DNA of 64,000 nt from Escherichia coli (lineage in GTDB: Bacteria > Pseudomonadota > Gammaproteobacteria > Enterobacterales > Enterobacteriaceae), in assembly GCF_002854065.1 (NCBI RefSeq), contig NZ_CP024147.1; one strand, 5' to 3'. Shown here one piece after another: positions 28,921-63,655 of this stretch; position 1 is the stretch's first letter, and the number at the start of each line of letters is the position of its first letter. Both the position numbers and the translations under genes were made by a program. The notes beneath the pieces are model-generated. The model ran no database searches, had not been told where the DNA came from, and was given only the letters and a program-made list of their open reading frames with translations.

Positions 28921-28935
28921 TTGCCTGCGCGCTTA

Positions 28936-28964
28936 AGCCAGCCTCGTATCAGGGGGCTGGTTTA
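28936..28964 (+). terminator. putative ybfA terminator
   Basis: ccagcc...ggctgg hairpin followed by TTT...TTTT. Confidence 0.4.
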
Positions 28965-28977
28965 TGTGTTTTACATC

Positions 28978-29011
28978 AACGTCTTCCATGATAATTAACA
29001 TGGAAGACGTT
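28978..29011. repeat. perfect 13-bp inverted repeat with 8-nt spacer, flanked by direct repeats TTACATC
   Basis: aacgtcttccatg-ataattaa-catggaagacgtt read directly; ttacatc on both sides. Confidence 0.6.
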
Positions 29012-29704
29012 TACATCGTGTTATTCATTTCATCACTGTTTTAGCATCAAGTTTCGATAGTATCCTTTTAAAGGGCGGCTCAGGATGCGGTCGCCTCCAT
29101 TGTTGCTCTAAGCAACTATGTCGTCAGAAATCTTCAGTTAGGTTGCATACTCCATTACACACTTTCCTGAAACCTCAGGGGAAGGTGAGAAAGCCCCTGT
29201 CACTTTTGCTCATTCCAGCATCTAAATAAATTCCGAATTTTGCTATTAACATCGCTACCGCAAGAAAAGCAGATAGTAAAGAGAGTAATATATACTTTAT
29301 TGATATATTAAGAATAATTAATTGTTAACATATCTAATGCAATAAGATGTGTTGTTGTTAATAAAAAGCTTATAGATTTATAGTTAATAATTAAAACGCA
29401 TCCGATATTTCAGCTTTTTCTATGCAAGATACAATTTTATAAGGTGTCCATTTTTATATGGAGGCGGTAGCGTGTCTGTTACTAGTGGTTTTATTTGCAT
29501 GGTGAATATATTGGGATTGTTAAATGCATAACGATGTATCCGTTCTGGTCGTTGTAAACATTGCTAATTGCTTAATATTATTAGTGATTATGGCTGGAAA
29601 GATAAAATGTGTGATAAACGGTGATGGATATCACCTTCATGACTAAAAAATAAATAAAAACCCATCAATAAATAATTCATTTATTAAAAAGGACTCATAC
29701 CAGT

Positions 29705-30157
29705 ATGACGGAGTATTATCTCAATGAAACTGTTGTAACTTTTCCCGGGAATATTATTCAGGACAGTACGATTAATATGCTGCGCCTCAGCGATCCCGAC
29801 GCTGCACTCATTATCAGTCGGGGCCAGATGCAGGAAGGAGACGAATTAGCCTCCCAGATTGAACAGCAAATGAAAAAACTGGAGAAACAGGTAAAGGATC
29901 TTCACTACACGCCAGTTCAGGTAACACGGGTAGGGATTAATGACGGTGAACAAGGGCTGGAAATACAGAGCCAGTTTCTCCGGGGTAACGAGCAGGTGTA
30001 CCAGTGTCAGGTGGCATTTGTATTGCCGGGTGAGCGGGTCATGATGGCCTTCACCTACGCCAGAACCACACCGCTGACCCCGGCAGATATGACGCGCTGG
30101 GCTGAAATTAAAAAGAATCTGCGCTTCAGGATGCGGCAGGAAGCCAGGACGAATTAA
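29705..30157 (+). CDS. Eag-family (DUF1795) chaperone for a prePAAR effector, EagR-like
   Basis: 150-aa ORF MTEYYLNETVVTFPGNIIQDSTINML... immediately upstream (18-bp gap) of an Rhs gene that carries a prePAAR motif and TM regions; size, position and N-terminal pattern fit Eag chaperones. Confidence 0.6.
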   Translation: MTEYYLNETVVTFPGNIIQDSTINMLRLSDPDAALIISRGQMQEGDELASQIEQQMKKLEKQVKDLHYTPVQVTRVGINDGEQGLEIQSQFLRGNEQVYQCQVAFVLPGERVMMAFTYARTTPLTPADMTRWAEIKKNLRFRMRQEARTN

Positions 30158-30175
30158 TCATACAGGGAACGGGAC

Positions 30176-33100
30176 ATGGAAGAGGCATTCTGGGCGGCAA
30201 GACAGGGTGATGCCCTGCTGCATACGTCGTTTATGGCAGATGTGCTGGGGGCGGTGCTGGAGGTGGCCGCAAATGTCGTTATTGATGCTCTCATTGTCGG
30301 CACAACCTCGTTACTGGCGGCGTCAGTGGGGTTCACGATGGGGTGCACGGCCGTCGTGCTGACCGGTTTTGTGGCGGGTGTGGCGATGGTGTACACCGGC
30401 GTGACAGAAAAGGTCAGCGAAGCCTGTTCAGCCCTCGCAGATATGCTTTTCCCGCCTCAGATTGAAGGTTACATCCTCACCGGCTCTGGTGACACATGGA
30501 TCAACAGCAAACCTGCCGCGCGGGCAGCGGCGACTGCGGCATCGCGGCAGGACATTGAGGCGCAGGAGGCGCAGTCGAAGGCGGAACAGGAAGAAGCGCA
30601 GCGTCAGGAGGATGCCAGAACGTTCCGGGATGTGGCCGGGGAATATCTGGAAATGGCGGGGGCCATAGCCCTGGCGGTTAACCCGGTGACAGGGCCTGTG
30701 CTGATGTCCCGGGCGCTGCACGACCAGCTCAGTACGGAAGAAGGGCGTTCTGAAATGGTGGATGGCGTGACACATTTTGTGTCGGAACTATGGCAGCCCA
30801 CTGTGGCCAGTGCGGCCCCGGGCTCCACCCCGACCCCTGACGATAAAATCGACTGCCATAAACATCCTTCCTCACTGACGCAGTTTCTCGCACAAAAAAA
30901 AGCTGCCTTTCTGGATGACCCCCTGGGAACGGCCCTTAACCTGCTGAGTCCGGACGGTATGCTGGAAACCGCCTTTCAGGGAGTGAATGCGGTTATTGGC
31001 AGCATCAGTAATCTGTTCAAAGGCGATGACGAGCCGCCCGCAGCGGAATATATCGCGGAAGGCGCGCGGGATGTGCGTATCAACAGCCAGCCGGCGGCAC
31101 GCAGCGGGGCACGCTGTACCTGCGAGGCCAGGGTGGTGAATGAGCCGGGGAACGGGGCGTTTGTGTCACCGGATGTGCGCATTGGCGGTCCGTTACTGGT
31201 GGTCAGGGATATCAGAAGCGGCAGGTCGCAGATAACCCTGGTGGCAACTGTGGCGCTGATGTTTCTTCGCCCGGGCAAAATGCTTTCTAAAATCGCCTGT
31301 TTTGCTGCCAGTGTCGGGATGAGCATGCTGGCGCAGAAGGCCACCAGAGCCCTTCCGCATCCGGTCAATGCCGCCACCGGGGCCAAATACCTTGCCGATG
31401 ACGATGACTTCGATTTCAGTCTGCCGGGCCACTTTCCGCTGGACTGGCAGCGCGTGTACAGCAGTCGTGACGAACGCACGGAAGGAATGTTTGGTCAGGG
31501 CTGGAGTGTGATGTATGAAGTCAGCCTGGTGCGCACACCGGGTAACGCGGACGAAAACTGCATGACCTTTGTGTCGGGCATGGGGCGACGCCTGGATATG
31601 GAAGCCGTGCTGCCGGGGAGCGGGTTTTACAGCCCCGGCGAAGGACTGGCAGTCCGGCGTGGTGAGCAGGGGCACTGGCTTATCAGCAGCGATGATGGAC
31701 AGTTTTTTCTGTTTGAAGCCGACCCGCACAACCCGCAGCGCCAGCGGCTGAAAATGCTGGGCGACCGTAACAGCAACTGTCTGAATCTGTACTACGACGA
31801 CCGGGGACGTATCACTGAAATCAGCGGCGAACAGCAGCGTCCGTGCATCCGTCTGTATTACGAACTGGCGGCGCATCCCCGGCGGATGACACAGATTTAT
31901 CAGCATTTCCCTGAGACTGCACCTTTACTGCTGCGTCGTTACAGCTATGACGAGGCCGGCCACCTGAACGGCGTGTACGACAGCACGGGGCACCTGCTGC
32001 GTGAGTTTGCTTACGACGAAAACCACTGCATGACGCTGCACCGCCAGCCGGGCGGCGAAGGGTATTATTACCAGTGGGGCTGGTATGACGGTCCGGATGA
32101 TGCGGCGTGGCGGGTAACGGGGCACCACACGGACAGCGGTGAACAGTACCGGCTGGCGTGGGACCTGGCGCAGCGCAGGCTGTGCGTGACGGACGGACTG
32201 GGGCGCACGCGTTATCACCAGTGGGATGCGCAGAATCAGGTGACGGCGTACCAGGACGAAGCCGGACAGGTGACGACATTCCGCTGGAGCGACGAAGAAC
32301 GACTGTTGCTGGGGATGACCGACCCTCAGGGCGGCAAATGGCGCTATGTGTATGACCGGCAGGGGCATATCACGGAGACGCACGACCCGCTGGGGCGGGT
32401 GGCGCAGGCGCAGTGGCACCCGGTGTGGCACCAGCCGGAAACGGAGGTGGACGCGGCGGGAAACAGCTGGCGCTGTGTGTACGATGAACGCGGCAACCTT
32501 CTTGCCGTGACCGACCCGCTGCAGCAGAACACCCGGTATCAGTATGACCACCACGGCCAGGTGGTGCAGATAACGGATGTCCGTGGGGGGAATAAATACC
32601 TTCAGTGGAACGAAGACGGGCAGCTCATGCGGCATACGGACTGTTCCGGCTCGCAGACGGCCTGGTTCTACGACGAACGCACGCGGCTGATACGGATGAC
32701 AGACGCGCAGAGCCACAGCACGCGCTACGGGTATGACGACAGCGGTCATCTGACGGAGGTGATACTGGCGGACGGCCGCACGGTGAATTACCAGTCAGAC
32801 GCGGCGGGCAGGCTGGTGAAGTACACCAGCCCGATGGGGAGGATAACGCGCTGGCAGCGGGACGGGCAGGGCCGGGTGCGCAGCCGGACGGACGCGATGG
32901 GGCGCAGGACGGCGTTCGGGTACGACGCTTACGGGCGTCTGGTCACGCTCACGAACGAGAACGGAGAACGCTACCGGTTCCGCCATGATGTGCTGGACCG
33001 TCTGGCGGAGCAGATAAACCCGGACGGCTGCCGCCAGTCGTACCGCTACAACGCGCTGAACGCGGTCACGGAAGTGGTGTTCACCGGGGACCGGGGCGGT

Positions 33101-34810
33101 GAAATCCGCCACCGGCTGGCGCGTGATGCGGCGGGCCGGCTCACGGCAAAGGAGACAGCCGATGGCCGTACGGAATACGTCCATGATGCGGCTGACCGGC
33201 TACTGGAAATCCGCCGCCGGCGGTCGGATGCCGGGGAAACGGACGCCCCGGAGATTATCCGCTTCAGCTACGACAGACTGGGGCGGATGCTGAGCGAGGA
33301 GACGGCGCAGGGCATCCTGACCCACCAGTACGATGAACTGGGCAACCGGACTGCCACCACCTTTCCGGACGGCAGAACGCAGCGCCATCTGTACTACGGC
33401 AGCGGCCATCTCCAGCAGATAAATCTGGACCGGGAAGTCATCAGCGAGTTCACGCGCGACCACCTGCACCGTGAAGTGCTCAGAAGCCAGGGGCGACTGA
33501 GCACGCGGCAGCTTTACGACCCCGGCGGGCGGCTGAAGCGCAGGGAGACATACAGCGGGATGCGCGGGGTGGTACCGGAGACGTTCACGGACCGGCAGTA
33601 CAGCTACAGTGGCGAGGATGAACTGCTGAAGACGCGGCACAGCCGGCGGGGGGAAACGGATTACTTCTACGACCCCACGGGGCGCATCACGGCGTGTCGT
33701 TCGGAGGATGAGGGGTATCTGGCGAGCTGGCAGTACGACGCGGCGGGAAACCTGCTGGGGAGGCGCGCGGGGGAAAGGGCCACGGCAGAAAACAGCGTGG
33801 TGCCGTTCAACCGGCTGATGTCTTACCGTGGTGTGCACTACCGTTATGACGAATTTGGCCGTGCGGTGGAAAAGGAGGGCCGGAGCGGAACGCAGAGTTA
33901 CCGTTATGATGCGGAACACCGGATGGTGGAAGTGACGACAGCGCGGGGGACATACCGGTATGTGTACGATGCGCTGGGGAGGCGGACGGAAAAACAGCAC
34001 ATCAGCCCTGACGGAAAACCGTACAACCGGACAAAATTTTTATGGGACGGGATGCGGCTGGCGCAGGAGAGCAGGCCGGAGGGGACAGGCAGCCTGTATA
34101 TCTACAGGGACCAGGGGAGTTATGAACCGCTGGCGCGGGTGGATAAGGCGGGGAAAGAGGGACCGAACCGGATACTGTATTTTCACACGGATGTGAACGG
34201 CGCGCCGGAAGAGATGACGGACAGTGACGGGAAAATCGTGTGGGAGACGGGGTATCAGGTCTGGGGTAACACGATACAGGAGAAGGACCACGGCAGGGTG
34301 GAGCAGAACCTGCGCTACCAGGGACAGTACCTCGACAGGGAAACGGGGCTGCACTACAATCTGCACAGGTACTATGATCCGGATGTCGGGCGGTTCATGG
34401 TAACGGATCCGATAGGGCTGCTTGGTGGATTAAACTTATACCAATATGCACCGAATCCGTTGGGGTGGATCGACCCGTTAGGTTTAAAGTGTGGGCAACC
34501 TGAATGGACAAATCATGGATACAAACATTTTCCTCCAAAAAACAAATCATGGAAGGATATAATTAAATCAACAAAATCAGGCCCGGCAAAATATTCTCCC
34601 GATATTGATATTAAAACGCTGGAATACGATGTTTTTAATACAGGCACACCTGTTACCAACGGTAAACCATGGAAAGTAAAAGATATGGGGAAAGTTATTG
34701 GGGCCAGTGAGGGTAAAGAATCTCAATGGGTTCGAGTTGAACTTAGCGGTGGGACAATACATGGACATCCCATATCACTTGATGAATTCCGAAGGCTAAC
34801 AACACCATGA
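30176..34810 (+). CDS. Rhs-family polymorphic toxin, class II prePAAR type VI secretion effector architecture
   Basis: 1544-aa ORF: prePAAR motif AARQGDALLH (aa 7-16), hydrophobic TM region 1 (aa ~20-76), split PAAR-like segments (INSKPAAR, INSQPAARSGARCTC), TM region 2 (aa ~349-390), long YD/RHS repeat core (YDxxGRL repeats), C-terminal PxxxxDPIGLxGGxNxYxYxxNPLGWIDPLGL boundary, then a short variable tip. Confidence 0.9.
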   Translation: MEEAFWAARQGDALLHTSFMADVLGAVLEVAANVVIDALIVGTTSLLAASVGFTMGCTAVVLTGFVAGVAMVYTGVTEKVSEACSALADMLFPPQIEGYILTGSGDTWINSKPAARAAATAASRQDIEAQEAQSKAEQEEAQRQEDARTFRDVAGEYLEMAGAIALAVNPVTGPVLMSRALHDQLSTEEGRSEMVDGVTHFVSELWQPTVASAAPGSTPTPDDKIDCHKHPSSLTQFLAQKKAAFLDDPLGTALNLLSPDGMLETAFQGVNAVIGSISNLFKGDDEPPAAEYIAEGARDVRINSQPAARSGARCTCEARVVNEPGNGAFVSPDVRIGGPLLVVRDIRSGRSQITLVATVALMFLRPGKMLSKIACFAASVGMSMLAQKATRALPHPVNAATGAKYLADDDDFDFSLPGHFPLDWQRVYSSRDERTEGMFGQGWSVMYEVSLVRTPGNADENCMTFVSGMGRRLDMEAVLPGSGFYSPGEGLAVRRGEQGHWLISSDDGQFFLFEADPHNPQRQRLKMLGDRNSNCLNLYYDDRGRITEISGEQQRPCIRLYYELAAHPRRMTQIYQHFPETAPLLLRRYSYDEAGHLNGVYDSTGHLLREFAYDENHCMTLHRQPGGEGYYYQWGWYDGPDDAAWRVTGHHTDSGEQYRLAWDLAQRRLCVTDGLGRTRYHQWDAQNQVTAYQDEAGQVTTFRWSDEERLLLGMTDPQGGKWRYVYDRQGHITETHDPLGRVAQAQWHPVWHQPETEVDAAGNSWRCVYDERGNLLAVTDPLQQNTRYQYDHHGQVVQITDVRGGNKYLQWNEDGQLMRHTDCSGSQTAWFYDERTRLIRMTDAQSHSTRYGYDDSGHLTEVILADGRTVNYQSDAAGRLVKYTSPMGRITRWQRDGQGRVRSRTDAMGRRTAFGYDAYGRLVTLTNENGERYRFRHDVLDRLAEQINPDGCRQSYRYNALNAVTEVVFTGDRGGEIRHRLARDAAGRLTAKETADGRTEYVHDAADRLLEIRRRRSDAGETDAPEIIRFSYDRLGRMLSEETAQGILTHQYDELGNRTATTFPDGRTQRHLYYGSGHLQQINLDREVISEFTRDHLHREVLRSQGRLSTRQLYDPGGRLKRRETYSGMRGVVPETFTDRQYSYSGEDELLKTRHSRRGETDYFYDPTGRITACRSEDEGYLASWQYDAAGNLLGRRAGERATAENSVVPFNRLMSYRGVHYRYDEFGRAVEKEGRSGTQSYRYDAEHRMVEVTTARGTYRYVYDALGRRTEKQHISPDGKPYNRTKFLWDGMRLAQESRPEGTGSLYIYRDQGSYEPLARVDKAGKEGPNRILYFHTDVNGAPEEMTDSDGKIVWETGYQVWGNTIQEKDHGRVEQNLRYQGQYLDRETGLHYNLHRYYDPDVGRFMVTDPIGLLGGLNLYQYAPNPLGWIDPLGLKCGQPEWTNHGYKHFPPKNKSWKDIIKSTKSGPAKYSPDIDIKTLEYDVFNTGTPVTNGKPWKVKDMGKVIGASEGKESQWVRVELSGGTIHGHPISLDEFRRLTTP
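30194..30223 (+). other. prePAAR motif (AARxxDxxxH)
   Basis: Codons 7-16 encode AARQGDALLH. Confidence 0.7.
34487..34810 (+). other. Rhs C-terminal polymorphic toxin domain (family not recognised)
   Basis: 107 codons after DPLGL: KCGQPEWTNHGYKHFPPKNKSWKDIIKSTKSGPAKYSPDIDIKTLEYDVFNTGTPVTNGKPWKVKDMGKVIGASEGKESQWVRVELSGGTIHGHPISLDEFRRLTTP; abrupt drop in GC relative to the Rhs core. Confidence 0.7.
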
Positions 34811-35100
34811 ACATTGATTTCTTAGGAAAAAAAGGGAATGTAATTTTTAATGACTTCTCCCTGAAACAAAGCATCCCTCTTAATGAACAGCGAGATGAAC
34901 TTAAGGAAGATATGCTCCAGGTTGAATATCCTGGTGGGTATCTTTTGGATGTTGGGTGGCGACCATCTTTTAATTTAAATGGGAATTTTTATATTTGTTT
35001 AATAAAGGATTTTGATTGGGATACTCCCATTTATAATGGTTCTGCGAAAGATATTGTCTCATTATTATTTGAAATTAACCAAGCTATAAATAAACTTTAA
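34807..35100 (+). CDS. putative cognate immunity protein of the Rhs toxin tip
   Basis: 97-aa AT-rich ORF whose ATG overlaps the rhs stop (ATGA); the usual toxin-immunity arrangement in Rhs loci; no family recognised. Confidence 0.65.
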   Translation: MNIDFLGKKGNVIFNDFSLKQSIPLNEQRDELKEDMLQVEYPGGYLLDVGWRPSFNLNGNFYICLIKDFDWDTPIYNGSAKDIVSLLFEINQAINKL

Positions 35101-35138
35101 AAAAGCCGGGAAGAAAATAACATCTTCCCGGCTTTTTT
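35099..35138. terminator. bidirectional intrinsic terminator shared by the immunity gene and the convergent SymE-like gene
   Basis: A6-gccgggaag-(loop)-cttcccggc-T6. Confidence 0.8.
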
Positions 35139-35143
35139 ATTAT

Positions 35144-35473
35144 TTAACTCTCGTCCAGCACACTAAACATCCCGTTCCGCATCCCCTTAACCACCTGTTT
35201 AACCTGATAAAGTTCCTCCCGCAGCTCCTGCACCTCGTCACTGTCAGCGATAATGGTCAGGCACCCCTCCGAAATCTTCACCGTGACACCCCGCCCGGTA
35301 TCAAATCCGGCCTCTTTCAGCCAGTCGCCCTTAAGGTTCAGGCAGGGGTGTCGTGAGTAGTACGTGGTCATGTAGGTTTTGCTGTTTATGTGGCGGGCTC
35401 TGACATAGCCGACTTTATAGCGGCGCTGTGTTTTGGAAATGGTGACTTCTGGCGTAATATCGTGTTCAGCCAT
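35144..35473 (-). CDS. SymE-like toxin (AbrB/SpoVT-fold, type I toxin-antitoxin family)
   Basis: 109-aa ORF; segment YYSRHPCLNLKGDWLKEAGFDTGRGVTVKISEGCLTI resembles the SymE signature as I recall it (xLKGxWLxxAGFxTG...EGC). Confidence 0.6.
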   Translation of the reverse strand: MAEHDITPEVTISKTQRRYKVGYVRARHINSKTYMTTYYSRHPCLNLKGDWLKEAGFDTGRGVTVKISEGCLTIIADSDEVQELREELYQVKQVVKGMRNGMFSVLDES

Positions 35474-35601
35474 GATTAACTACCTTGATGAGTTGCTTGC
35501 GGGGAGCGCGCTTTCGTAATCTTGCCCTGCTAGCGGATTAACTTCACAAAAATCATTTCCCAACGTCTACACTTACTCCTGTTAATATCTCAGGAGCAGT
35601 A

Positions 35602-61749: not shown

Positions 61750-62316
61750 ATGCCTTAAACGGTTAACCACGGTCGAAATCTGACTGCAGGCTTGACTGCA
61801 TGACCACAGCCACTGTGGATTGCCGCAACCGACCGCAAGCCACGAATAAGAACGACGGCGAATTTCGAATCGTTACCTGATGCACTGGCTTCCCAGCGTT
61901 TGACCGTAGCGTTAAGTAAATCAACAAAAGCGATGTTCACCGCTTTTCGTCAAGTCGTGCCATTTGTCAGCCAGGATCGGGTCTTTACCCCGGATATTGC
62001 AGCATCGCAAAAATTCTTAGAGGGATATGCTATAAATCAAAAATAAAATCTTTGTTGATTGTTTATCATAATATCCACAGATATGATAAATGATATCAAT
62101 TTAATAATTTTCACTTAATGTGATTCCGGATAATTCGAAAGGCGCTGTGCTTTTCGGATTATTATTATCTGATTAAGATATTTGTCACGCCAGGCTTACT
62201 GGTTTATAAATGTCAATCATGATTCTTATAAATTATTTATTGCTGCTTTGGTTACCATTACTTCGTAATAAGTAATGTATTTTTGATTGTTTAAACTATT
62301 TTTAAGGGACGGCATT

Positions 62317-62416
62317 ATGCGAGGGAAAATACCTAAAACGGAACTGCTGGTGACTTTTGAGGTCGTCGCACGTCATGAAAGTTATACCAGAGCGGCAGAG
62401 GAGTTAGCGTTAACCC
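62317..62416 (+). pseudogene. 5' fragment (33 codons) of a LysR-type transcriptional regulator, truncated by IS1
   Basis: ATG preceded by AAGGGA; MRGKIPKTELLVTFEVVARHESYTRAAEELALT is a LysR-family HTH start; reading frame runs straight into the IS1 terminal repeat at 62417. Confidence 0.7.
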
Positions 62417-62431
62417 GGTAATGACTCCAAC

Positions 62432-62935
62432 TTATTGATAGTGTTTTATGTTCAGATAATGCCCGATGACTTTGTCATGCAGCTCCACCGATTTTGAGAA
62501 CGACAGCGACTTCCGTCCCAGCCGTGCCAGGTGCTGCCTCAGATTCAGGTTATGCCGCTCAATTCGCTGCGTATATCGCTTGCTGATTACGTGCAGCTTT
62601 CCCTTCAGGCGGGATTCATACAGCGGCCAGCCATCCGTCATCCATATCACCACGTCAAAGGGTGACAGCAGGCTCATAAGACGCCCCAGCGTCGCCATAG
62701 TGCGTTCACCGAATACGTGCGCAACAACCGTCTTCCGGAGCCTGTCATACGCGTAAAACAGCCAGCGCTGGCGCGATTTAGCCCCGACGTATCCCCACTG
62801 TTCGTCCATTTCCGCGCAGACGATGACGTCACTGCCCGGCTGTATGCGCGAGGTTACCGACTGCGGCCTGAGTTTTTTAAATGGCGGAAAATCGTGTTGA
62901 GGCCAACGCCCATAATGCGGGCGGTTGCCCGGCAT
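62432..62935 (-). CDS. insB: IS1 InsB (expressed as the InsAB' transposase by -1 frameshift)
   Basis: 167-aa ORF; slippery TTTAAAAAAC on the coding strand (T-run 62873-62878 on plus). Confidence 0.93.
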
Positions 62936-63129
62936 CCAACGCCATTCATGGCCATATCAATGATTTTCTGGTGCGTACCGGGTTGAGAAGCGGTGTAAGT
63001 GAACTGCAGTTGCCATGTTTTACGGCAGTGAGAGCAGAGATAGCGCTGATGTCCGGCAGTGCTTTTGCCGTTACGCACCACCCCGTCAGTAGCTGAACAG
63101 GAGGGACAGCTGATAGAAACAGAAGCCAC
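62854..63129 (-). CDS. insA: IS1 InsA
   Basis: 91-aa [46 protein letters not shown]... Confidence 0.95.
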
Positions 63130-63184
63130 TGGAGCACCTCAAAAACACCATCATACACTAAATCAGTAAGTTGGCAGCATCACC

Positions 63185-63655
63185 CACCACGATTTGCAAA
63201 ATTTCATTGTGCGCCATGGCATCGACAATGCTGGTGGGGAAAGCATGCGAAATAAATACTTTTAGCGTAAAGGGTTCTGCCGCGACCACTCCGGTGGTTT
63301 CGGCACCGTGTGCAACAAAATTAATTCCTGTACCTGGCATGAAGAAATTTACCGTTATCAAGCCTAAGGCAATTGACAGCAATGAGGCGCAAATAAATAA
63401 AAAGAGTGTTTTAGAAAAAATACGACCAAGGGCTTTGGCATCGCCCATTTTAGCAATACCTACCACCAGGGTAGAGACCACTAACGGAGCGATAATCATT
63501 TTTATCAGTCGTAAGAAAATCGTCGTGAATATCGATATTTCTTGCGCATAGAGTTTTGCGGTTTCCGGTGAAGCAGTGTTATTGAGCACTACGCCGATAA
63601 TCATTCCAAGTACCAGCGCCAAAAGAATCATCGTGGTTAAACTTATTTTCTTCAT
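63185..63655 (-). pseudogene. 5' part (~157 codons) of a sodium:dicarboxylate symporter (DAACS) family transporter gene, 3' end replaced by IS1
   Basis: MKKISLTTMILLALVLGMIIGVVLNN...IFLRLIKMIIAPLVVSTLVVGIAKMGD resembles the conserved N-terminus of GltP/GltT/DctA-type carriers; GGAGG RBS; frame runs into the IS1 end. Confidence 0.7.

Follow-up and report, generated by a model that had tools for sequence, protein, structure and literature searches.

We analyzed a 64,000-nt stretch of Escherichia coli DNA (NCBI RefSeq assembly GCF_002854065.1, contig NZ_CP024147.1; here, the window) and report on a 150-codon gene, eag (29705..30157, + strand), that lies just 5′ of an rhs gene. An initial sequence-only reading had proposed it as an Eag/DUF1795-type chaperone gene paired with a prePAAR Rhs. 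On family membership, fold, motif, gene order, and the difference from strain K-12, all determined here, we assign it as an eagR-type gene encoding a cytoplasmic Eag (DUF1795) chaperone very probably dedicated to the Rhs encoded 18 bp downstream (probability, about 0.93).

The gene order is kdpE-D-C-B-A-F, ybfA, a cassette of eag, rhs, a small open reading frame (ORF), and a SymE-family gene, and then ybgA, phrB, and dtpD; everything else in the window is ordinary core genome that extends from nag to suc. This locus, between kdp-ybfA and ybgA-phr, is the rhsC site of K-12. In MG1655, rhsC is the next gene after ybfA, at a distance of 243 bp, and ybfB, ybfO, ybfC, the H-repeat genes, and ybgA come after it; no eag is present and no gene lies between ybfA and rhsC, in agreement with the sequence-only reading. 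Synteny between the window and K-12 breaks right past the ybfA stop codon and resumes at 35496, and the island was therefore delimited as 28921..35495. The closest complete genome is that of E. coli CUWW06 (NZ_CP182139.1); 5 mismatches and 1 gap separate it from the window over ~62 kb, and it is not exactly the window's own genome.

The eag gene and its product

The eag ORF begins with ATG, the first start codon past the upstream stop, and its 150-residue translation opens with MTEYYLNETVVTFPG. A motif resembling a ribosome-binding site (AAGGA, 29689..29693, + strand) lies 11 nt 5′ of the ATG; strain 40EC keeps this motif in its vgrG-linked copy. The Rhs ORF starts at 30176 on the same strand, after a gap of 18 bp (30158..30175). 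Position, size, strand, ribosome-binding site, and N-terminal pattern had all been given correctly from the sequence alone, the coordinates exactly. The same coding sequence (CDS) is annotated by RefSeq in CUWW06, where the Prokaryotic Genome Annotation Pipeline (PGAP) labels it “DcrB-related protein” (WP_032280514.1). Among 1.84 billion representative proteins, searched exhaustively, there were 107 homologue clusters, and the ratio of nonsynonymous to synonymous substitution rates (dN/dS) was 0.14 to 0.27, a figure resting on six substitutions only.

A DUF1795 profile search and a structure prediction had been suggested as checks on the chaperone identity, and both were run. The product matched Pfam PF08786 (DcrB, formerly DUF1795) over residues 18 to 137 (69.6 bits; cutoff, 27.2; E value, 3.6e-19); among NCBIfam models, none named the ORF, and only subthreshold noise was returned. 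Searched against PDB with phmmer, the protein matched three SciW entries best and EagT6 next, weakly. A family profile built from 76 full-length Eag homologues retrieved from PDB only SciW (E value, 1.4e-33) and EagT6/PA0094 (E value, 1.9e-22), both end to end, and did not match DcrB at an E value of ≤1. The AlphaFold2 model (mean predicted local distance difference test score, 92.9) has the fold of SciW and EagT6 and not that of DcrB: Foldseek ranks 1 to 15 were all SciW or EagT6 chains (template modeling [TM] score, 0.67 to 0.82), superposition gave TM scores of 0.76 to 0.82 for SciW and 0.67 to 0.69 for EagT6, and DcrB (6E8A) came next in the list (TM score, 0.52 to 0.64; root mean square deviation, >8 Å). 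The N terminus is hydrophilic, with a maximum 19-residue Kyte-Doolittle hydropathy of 0.96, so that, judged by hydropathy, no signal peptide or lipobox was seen.

In EagT6, the residues that contact the effector transmembrane helices are S37, S41, Q58, Q102, and L66, together with a hydrophobic palm (PMC7773334). By sequence alignment to SciW only, the window Eag has equivalents in S38 (EagT6 S41), Q55 (Q58), and Q102 (Q102; SciW Q106), and V63 occupies the position of the L66 “knob.”

The Rhs partner

The adjacent gene (30176..34810, + strand) encodes a 1,544-residue Rhs effector with a prePAAR motif, one transmembrane domain (TMD) region, a split PAAR, DUF6531, a YD-repeat cage, the RHS core end, and a C-terminal toxin; its Pfam families are RHS_repeat, DUF6531, RHS, and PAAR_motif. 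The prePAAR motif, AARQGDALLH (residues 7 to 16; 30194..30223, + strand), matches AARxxDxxxH exactly. It is followed by a single N-terminal hydrophobic region (residues ~18 to 77; 30227..30406, + strand), the predicted Eag-binding segment and the only part of the protein in which a 19-residue Kyte-Doolittle window reaches 1.6, with a weak second stretch at residues 160 to 178 (1.41). The first half of PAAR falls at about residues 95 to 120 and the second at about residues 287 to 345 (31034..31210, + strand), the latter from PF05488 (34.1 bits; cutoff, 27; residues 291 to 321) and from alignments to RhsA (7q97) and Tre23 (7pq5). The best PDB relative is Pseudomonas protegens RhsA, 7Q97 (E value, 0; 1,054.7 bits); phmmer with the first 82 residues alone found nothing in PDB, probably through compositional filtering.

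The motif AARxxDxxxH and the class I prePAAR effectors were defined by Ahmad et al. 2020 (PMC7773334): such effectors have a single TMD region within the first 300 residues, PAAR, and a large Rhs cage, and they need one Eag chaperone at the N terminus. By its sequence features, the window Rhs is a class I prePAAR effector. The profile, the fold, and this prePAAR partner agree on the Eag/DUF1795-type identity of the upstream gene.

At its other end, the Rhs carries a predicted RNase-like (BECR-type) toxin domain (residues 1438 to 1544, after DPLGL; 34487..34807, + strand). A putative immunity gene of 97 codons (34807..35100, + strand) overlaps the Rhs stop codon by 4 bp (ATGA) at its start; its product has no family match in Pfam or NCBIfam and is presumably the cognate immunity protein, to judge by position and by the low GC content typical of Rhs immunity genes. 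The C-terminal tip and the immunity gene vary by strain, with identity of 50% and then 23% beyond residue 1400.

Compared with K-12, the window Rhs shares 28% identity with RhsC and scores 324 bits against the NCBIfam RHS_core model (NF041261; RhsA to RhsD), whose cutoff is 2,000 bits, which places it outside the K-12 type; K-12 RhsC has no PAAR_motif match and no N-terminal TMD module. The view that this Rhs belongs to a lineage distinct from that of K-12 is upheld, and the ybfA-ybgA “rhsC” site can carry either of two unrelated Rhs lineages.

Conservation of the eag-rhs linkage

Homologues of Eag at 54, 42, and 36% identity are all encoded in the order vgrG, eag, effector, and every one of these effectors has AARxxDxxxH; one such locus lies inside a type VI secretion system (T6SS) cluster with clpV, tssB, tssC, and Tae4/Tai4. 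The order eag, then prePAAR effector, was constant in 7/7 loci examined, and the 18-bp spacing is kept in paralogous copies. Among 5,426 complete E. coli genomes, 212 carry eag (median, two copies), and the ybfA-site layout, spacer included, occurs with differing toxin tips in about 145 to 199 (~3 to 4%). At the rhsE locus of 40EC and MEI003, a 98 to 99% identical eag stands in the order two small ORFs, vgrG, eag, rhs, immunity gene, symE.

The Eag of MEI003 (locus L020, from 20472) differs from that of the window at 3/150 residues, and the Rhs beside it is identical to the window Rhs over residues 1 to 27, which hold prePAAR and the first helix, and strongly divergent over residues 28 to 88, which hold the other TM helices. 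This suggests that recognition is mainly by prePAAR and helix 1.

The two small ORFs 5′ of vgrG (176 and 120 residues; no Pfam match) are conserved in 40EC (locus L003, 16846..17735), MEI003, and CUWW06, in the last of which one of them is mislabeled “type IV secretion protein Rhs.” They may encode accessory proteins of spike assembly.

Alternative identities of the eag product

That eag is a chance ORF and no gene is hardly credible. The sole point for it is the AAGGA-to-ATG spacing, slightly long for a Shine-Dalgarno site, and the Pfam E value argues it away, as do the homologue clusters and the confident AlphaFold2 model. DcrB is the sole family name attached to the product, by Pfam and PGAP alike, and DcrB 6E8A is among the fold matches; still, a DcrB-like periplasmic lipoprotein unrelated to the Rhs is extremely improbable. 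We rejected this candidate because, by hydropathy, a hydrophobic N terminus, and with it any signal peptide or lipobox, is absent; the family profile also misses DcrB, the SciW fold is much closer (TM score, ~0.8), and the linkage to prePAAR effectors is conserved. Very unlikely, too, is an Eag-fold protein that serves some client other than the adjacent Rhs, whether a different effector or as a general adaptor. Genomes often hold more Eag genes than prePAAR effectors (PMC7773334), and the MEI003 Eag adjoins an Rhs that diverges within the hydrophobic segment; however, prePAAR and the first helix are identical where the Eag is identical, both the 18-bp spacing and the order of eag and effector are retained, and published work describes Eag chaperones as specific to the effectors they are paired with (PMC7773334).

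Proposed mechanism

What a dedicated Eag would do is drawn from homologues, as regards dimerization, TMD binding, VgrG loading, secretion, toxin activity, and immunity alike. If SciW-Rhs1 and EagT6-Tse6 are taken as models, Eag would act as a dimer that clasps prePAAR together with the single hydrophobic region of the Rhs (residues ~7 to 77), a grip that mimics helix packing in a membrane (PMC7773334). Held in this way, the membrane-seeking segment would stay soluble and stable in the producer cytoplasm until PAAR caps a VgrGO1-type spike of T6SS1. After firing, the TMD would help the Rhs cage bring its C-terminal RNase-like toxin into a neighboring bacterium, and the 97-residue product of the downstream gene would protect the producer itself. 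According to PMC6730261, PMC7216683, and 10.1101/2024.03.05.583533, Ma et al. 2017 (Environ Microbiol 19:345) reported that Rhs-CT delivery by the E. coli T6SS1 requires both eagR/DUF1795 and vgrGO1. The window pair would need a spike supplied in trans by a vgrGO1-type gene of the rhsE locus.

Loss of vgrG and present function

Homology to the vgrG-eag-rhs islands begins at window position 29620 (40EC locus L003, 19918), 37 nt before the vgrG stop codon. What remains of vgrG is a 3′-end remnant (29620..29657, + strand; blastn against 40EC and MEI003) of the last 12 codons and the stop, out of frame by one extra A. Since the homology starts inside the 3′ end of vgrG, the ybfA-site cassette is a vgrG-less derivative of a vgrG-eag-rhs island.

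Several observations count against the dedicated-chaperone reading. By sequence alignment, A34 of the window Eag stands where EagT6 and SciW have S37. The spacer between ybfA and the cassette contains 3 sigma-70-like sites against 4.7 expected by chance and no convincing promoter, and we therefore make no promoter claim for it. No vgrG adjoins eag, and neither a vgrG nor a T6SS gene was found within the 64-kb window; the usual vgrG-eag-effector order and the accompanying T6SS, which are typical of the family and not defining, are thus lacking for this copy, although the order is seen in the paralogous and homologous loci. In CUWW06, the T6SS-1 site at tRNA-Asp (locus L006, 1082261..1091444) retains tssA, tssG, tssF, tssE, and a tagJ pseudogene beside IS3, followed by an Rhs fragment and a symE gene, and is without tssB, tssC, hcp, tssH, tssJ, tssK, tssL, and tssM. 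The rhsE vgrG (vgrGO1) of the same genome is a C-terminally truncated pseudogene, and the eag-rhs usual there is gone. Strain 40EC has two eag-rhs cassettes and no T6SS at aspV.

Downstream of the truncated vgrG at the CUWW06 rhsE locus (L005, 2313122..2317485) lie a symE fragment and an ISAs1 transposase gene. The T6SS-1 and rhsE loci of CUWW06 look like cases of decay mediated by insertion sequences (IS), while the ybfA-site cassette stays intact.

A full T6SS-1 set is found in strain RM8082 (tagK, tssH, tssB, tssC, tae4/tai4, hcp, tssJ, tssK, tssL, tssM, tagF, and vgrG). There, a different, 143-residue Eag paralogue is encoded (locus L021, 34738..35169) between vgrG and a PAAR-Rhs gene cut by ISEc1; the annotation of this assembly marks tssH, hcp, and tagK as frameshifted or interrupted.

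The cassette may accordingly be a stranded relic, with a product that is an Eag chaperone by descent and that no longer takes part in secretion here, for want of a cognate VgrG and a working T6SS; we place this slightly short of even odds. It is compatible with the family assignment, and the persistence of such a relic would be owed to drift, to its immunity gene, or to the SymE/IsrA module. The 12 remaining vgrG codons speak for it, as do the reduced T6SS-1, the vgrGO1 pseudogene, and the missing rhsE eag-rhs of CUWW06, and the empty aspV site of 40EC, a strain that nevertheless has the cassette. On the other side, eag, the rhs of 1,544 codons, and the immunity ORF are all intact; the eag dN/dS is below 0.3, although on 6 substitutions; and the frequency of the ybfA-site layout, with its differing tips, suggests continued turnover or selection. 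Moreover, the decay was read at the T6SS-1 and rhsE loci of CUWW06, which is a near relative of the window genome and not the same genome, and a second T6SS may lie elsewhere in the genome.

Since vgrG is lost and, in CUWW06, T6SS-1 is decayed and vgrGO1 truncated, the function of the Eag-Rhs pair in this strain is doubtful. The description of the Rhs as secretion-dedicated consequently holds by descent and is in doubt for the present day. The pair has every hallmark of T6SS delivery and yet may well be unusable in this lineage, as far as the T6SS-1 and rhsE loci examined go. That the vgrG-less cassette is kept in T6SS-poor lineages for a value independent of the T6SS, as a reservoir of immunity genes and toxin tips or through SymE/IsrA stabilization, is a conjecture to which we give little credence; alternatively, the cassette may be armed in trans by a VgrG or a T6SS elsewhere. 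An effector cassette with T6SS hallmarks in a genome apparently no longer able to fire it calls for caution when competitive ability is inferred from effector counts.

Spacer and cassette edges

The AT-rich spacer between ybfA and the cassette (28921..29619, no strand assigned; ~700 bp; 29 to 40% GC) has no annotated feature in the 25 records listed, and it is present in 145 to 199 E. coli genomes at 86 to 100% identity. It contains a 34-bp near-perfect palindrome (28978..29011; AACGTCTTCCATGATAA / TTAACATGGAAGACGTT), and its ORFs are unremarkable, at most 40 codons long. The spacer may hold a promoter of the cassette or a silencing site. A consensus scan placed a terminator-like hairpin after ybfA (28934..28964, + strand), which speaks against transcription of eag-rhs by readthrough from ybfA.

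The right end of the cassette is formed by a SymE-family type I toxin gene (35144..35473, − strand; PF08845, 70.4 bits; PGAP agrees), with an isrA-family small RNA antisense to it (35274..35402, + strand; Rfam RF01385, full-length, 112.9 bits against a gathering score of 51). A SymE-family gene stands at the 3′ end of every cassette examined: that of the window, those at two loci each in 40EC and MEI003, the aspV remnant of CUWW06, and the L007 locus, which comes from a different source contig and has an Eag of 54% identity. Together, the SymE-family gene and isrA may form a module akin to a type I toxin-antitoxin system, one that stabilizes or delimits the islands.

The sole structural difference between the window and CUWW06 is an IS1-associated rearrangement at ~62070..63200, where blocks align in another order.

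Comparison with known systems

Eag chaperones, prePAAR effectors, and E. coli eagR-Rhs islands are already published, and there is nothing new in the gene itself; because the eagR-Rhs arrangement is known and RefSeq annotates the CDS, the discovery value is small. The practical value lies in a correct functional label for a gene named uninformatively “DcrB-related protein.”

DcrB of Salmonella and E. coli (PDB 6E8A), which gives PF08786 its name, has the Pfam family and a general Mog1/PsbP-like fold in common with the window Eag. It is exported and lipidated, whereas the window Eag has no signal sequence and is structurally much nearer to the Eag proteins. Of the solved structures, SciW is the best match in sequence and fold, and its client is of the same type (prePAAR, one TMD region, PAAR, and Rhs cage); by sequence alignment, the conserved polar contacts S41, Q58, and Q106 are matched in the window Eag. 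The two nonetheless share ~20% identity, the S37 position is Ala in the window Eag, and SciW is encoded inside a T6SS cluster. EagT6 of Pseudomonas aeruginosa (PA0094; PDB 1TU1, 6XRF), the chaperone of Tse6, shares family and fold with the window Eag, but its client belongs to class II and, unlike the window Rhs, has two TMD regions and lacks an Rhs cage. From EagR1-RhsA of P. protegens (7Q97) comes the solved Rhs closest to ours, and in EagR-Tre23 of Photorhabdus laumondii (7PQ5), the prePAAR-TMD-PAAR part of Tre23 aligns to the N terminus of the window Rhs; the insert between the PAAR halves (residues ~120 to 285) is longer in the window Rhs than in Tre23 and RhsA.

The nearest counterpart is EagR of the vgrGO1-eagR-PAAR-Rhs-CT islands of E. 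coli, an accessory of T6SS1, which agrees with the window Eag in species, in DUF1795 family, and in its place 5′ of a PAAR-Rhs gene; published work sets this eagR-linked Rhs clade apart from the “neighborless” Rhs of the K-12 type. The window copy differs from those islands in its location at the ybfA-ybgA site and in a vgrG reduced to its last 12 codons. On this locus architecture, the window eag is most probably the same eagR as that of the published vgrGO1 islands, moved to the rhsC site without its vgrG.
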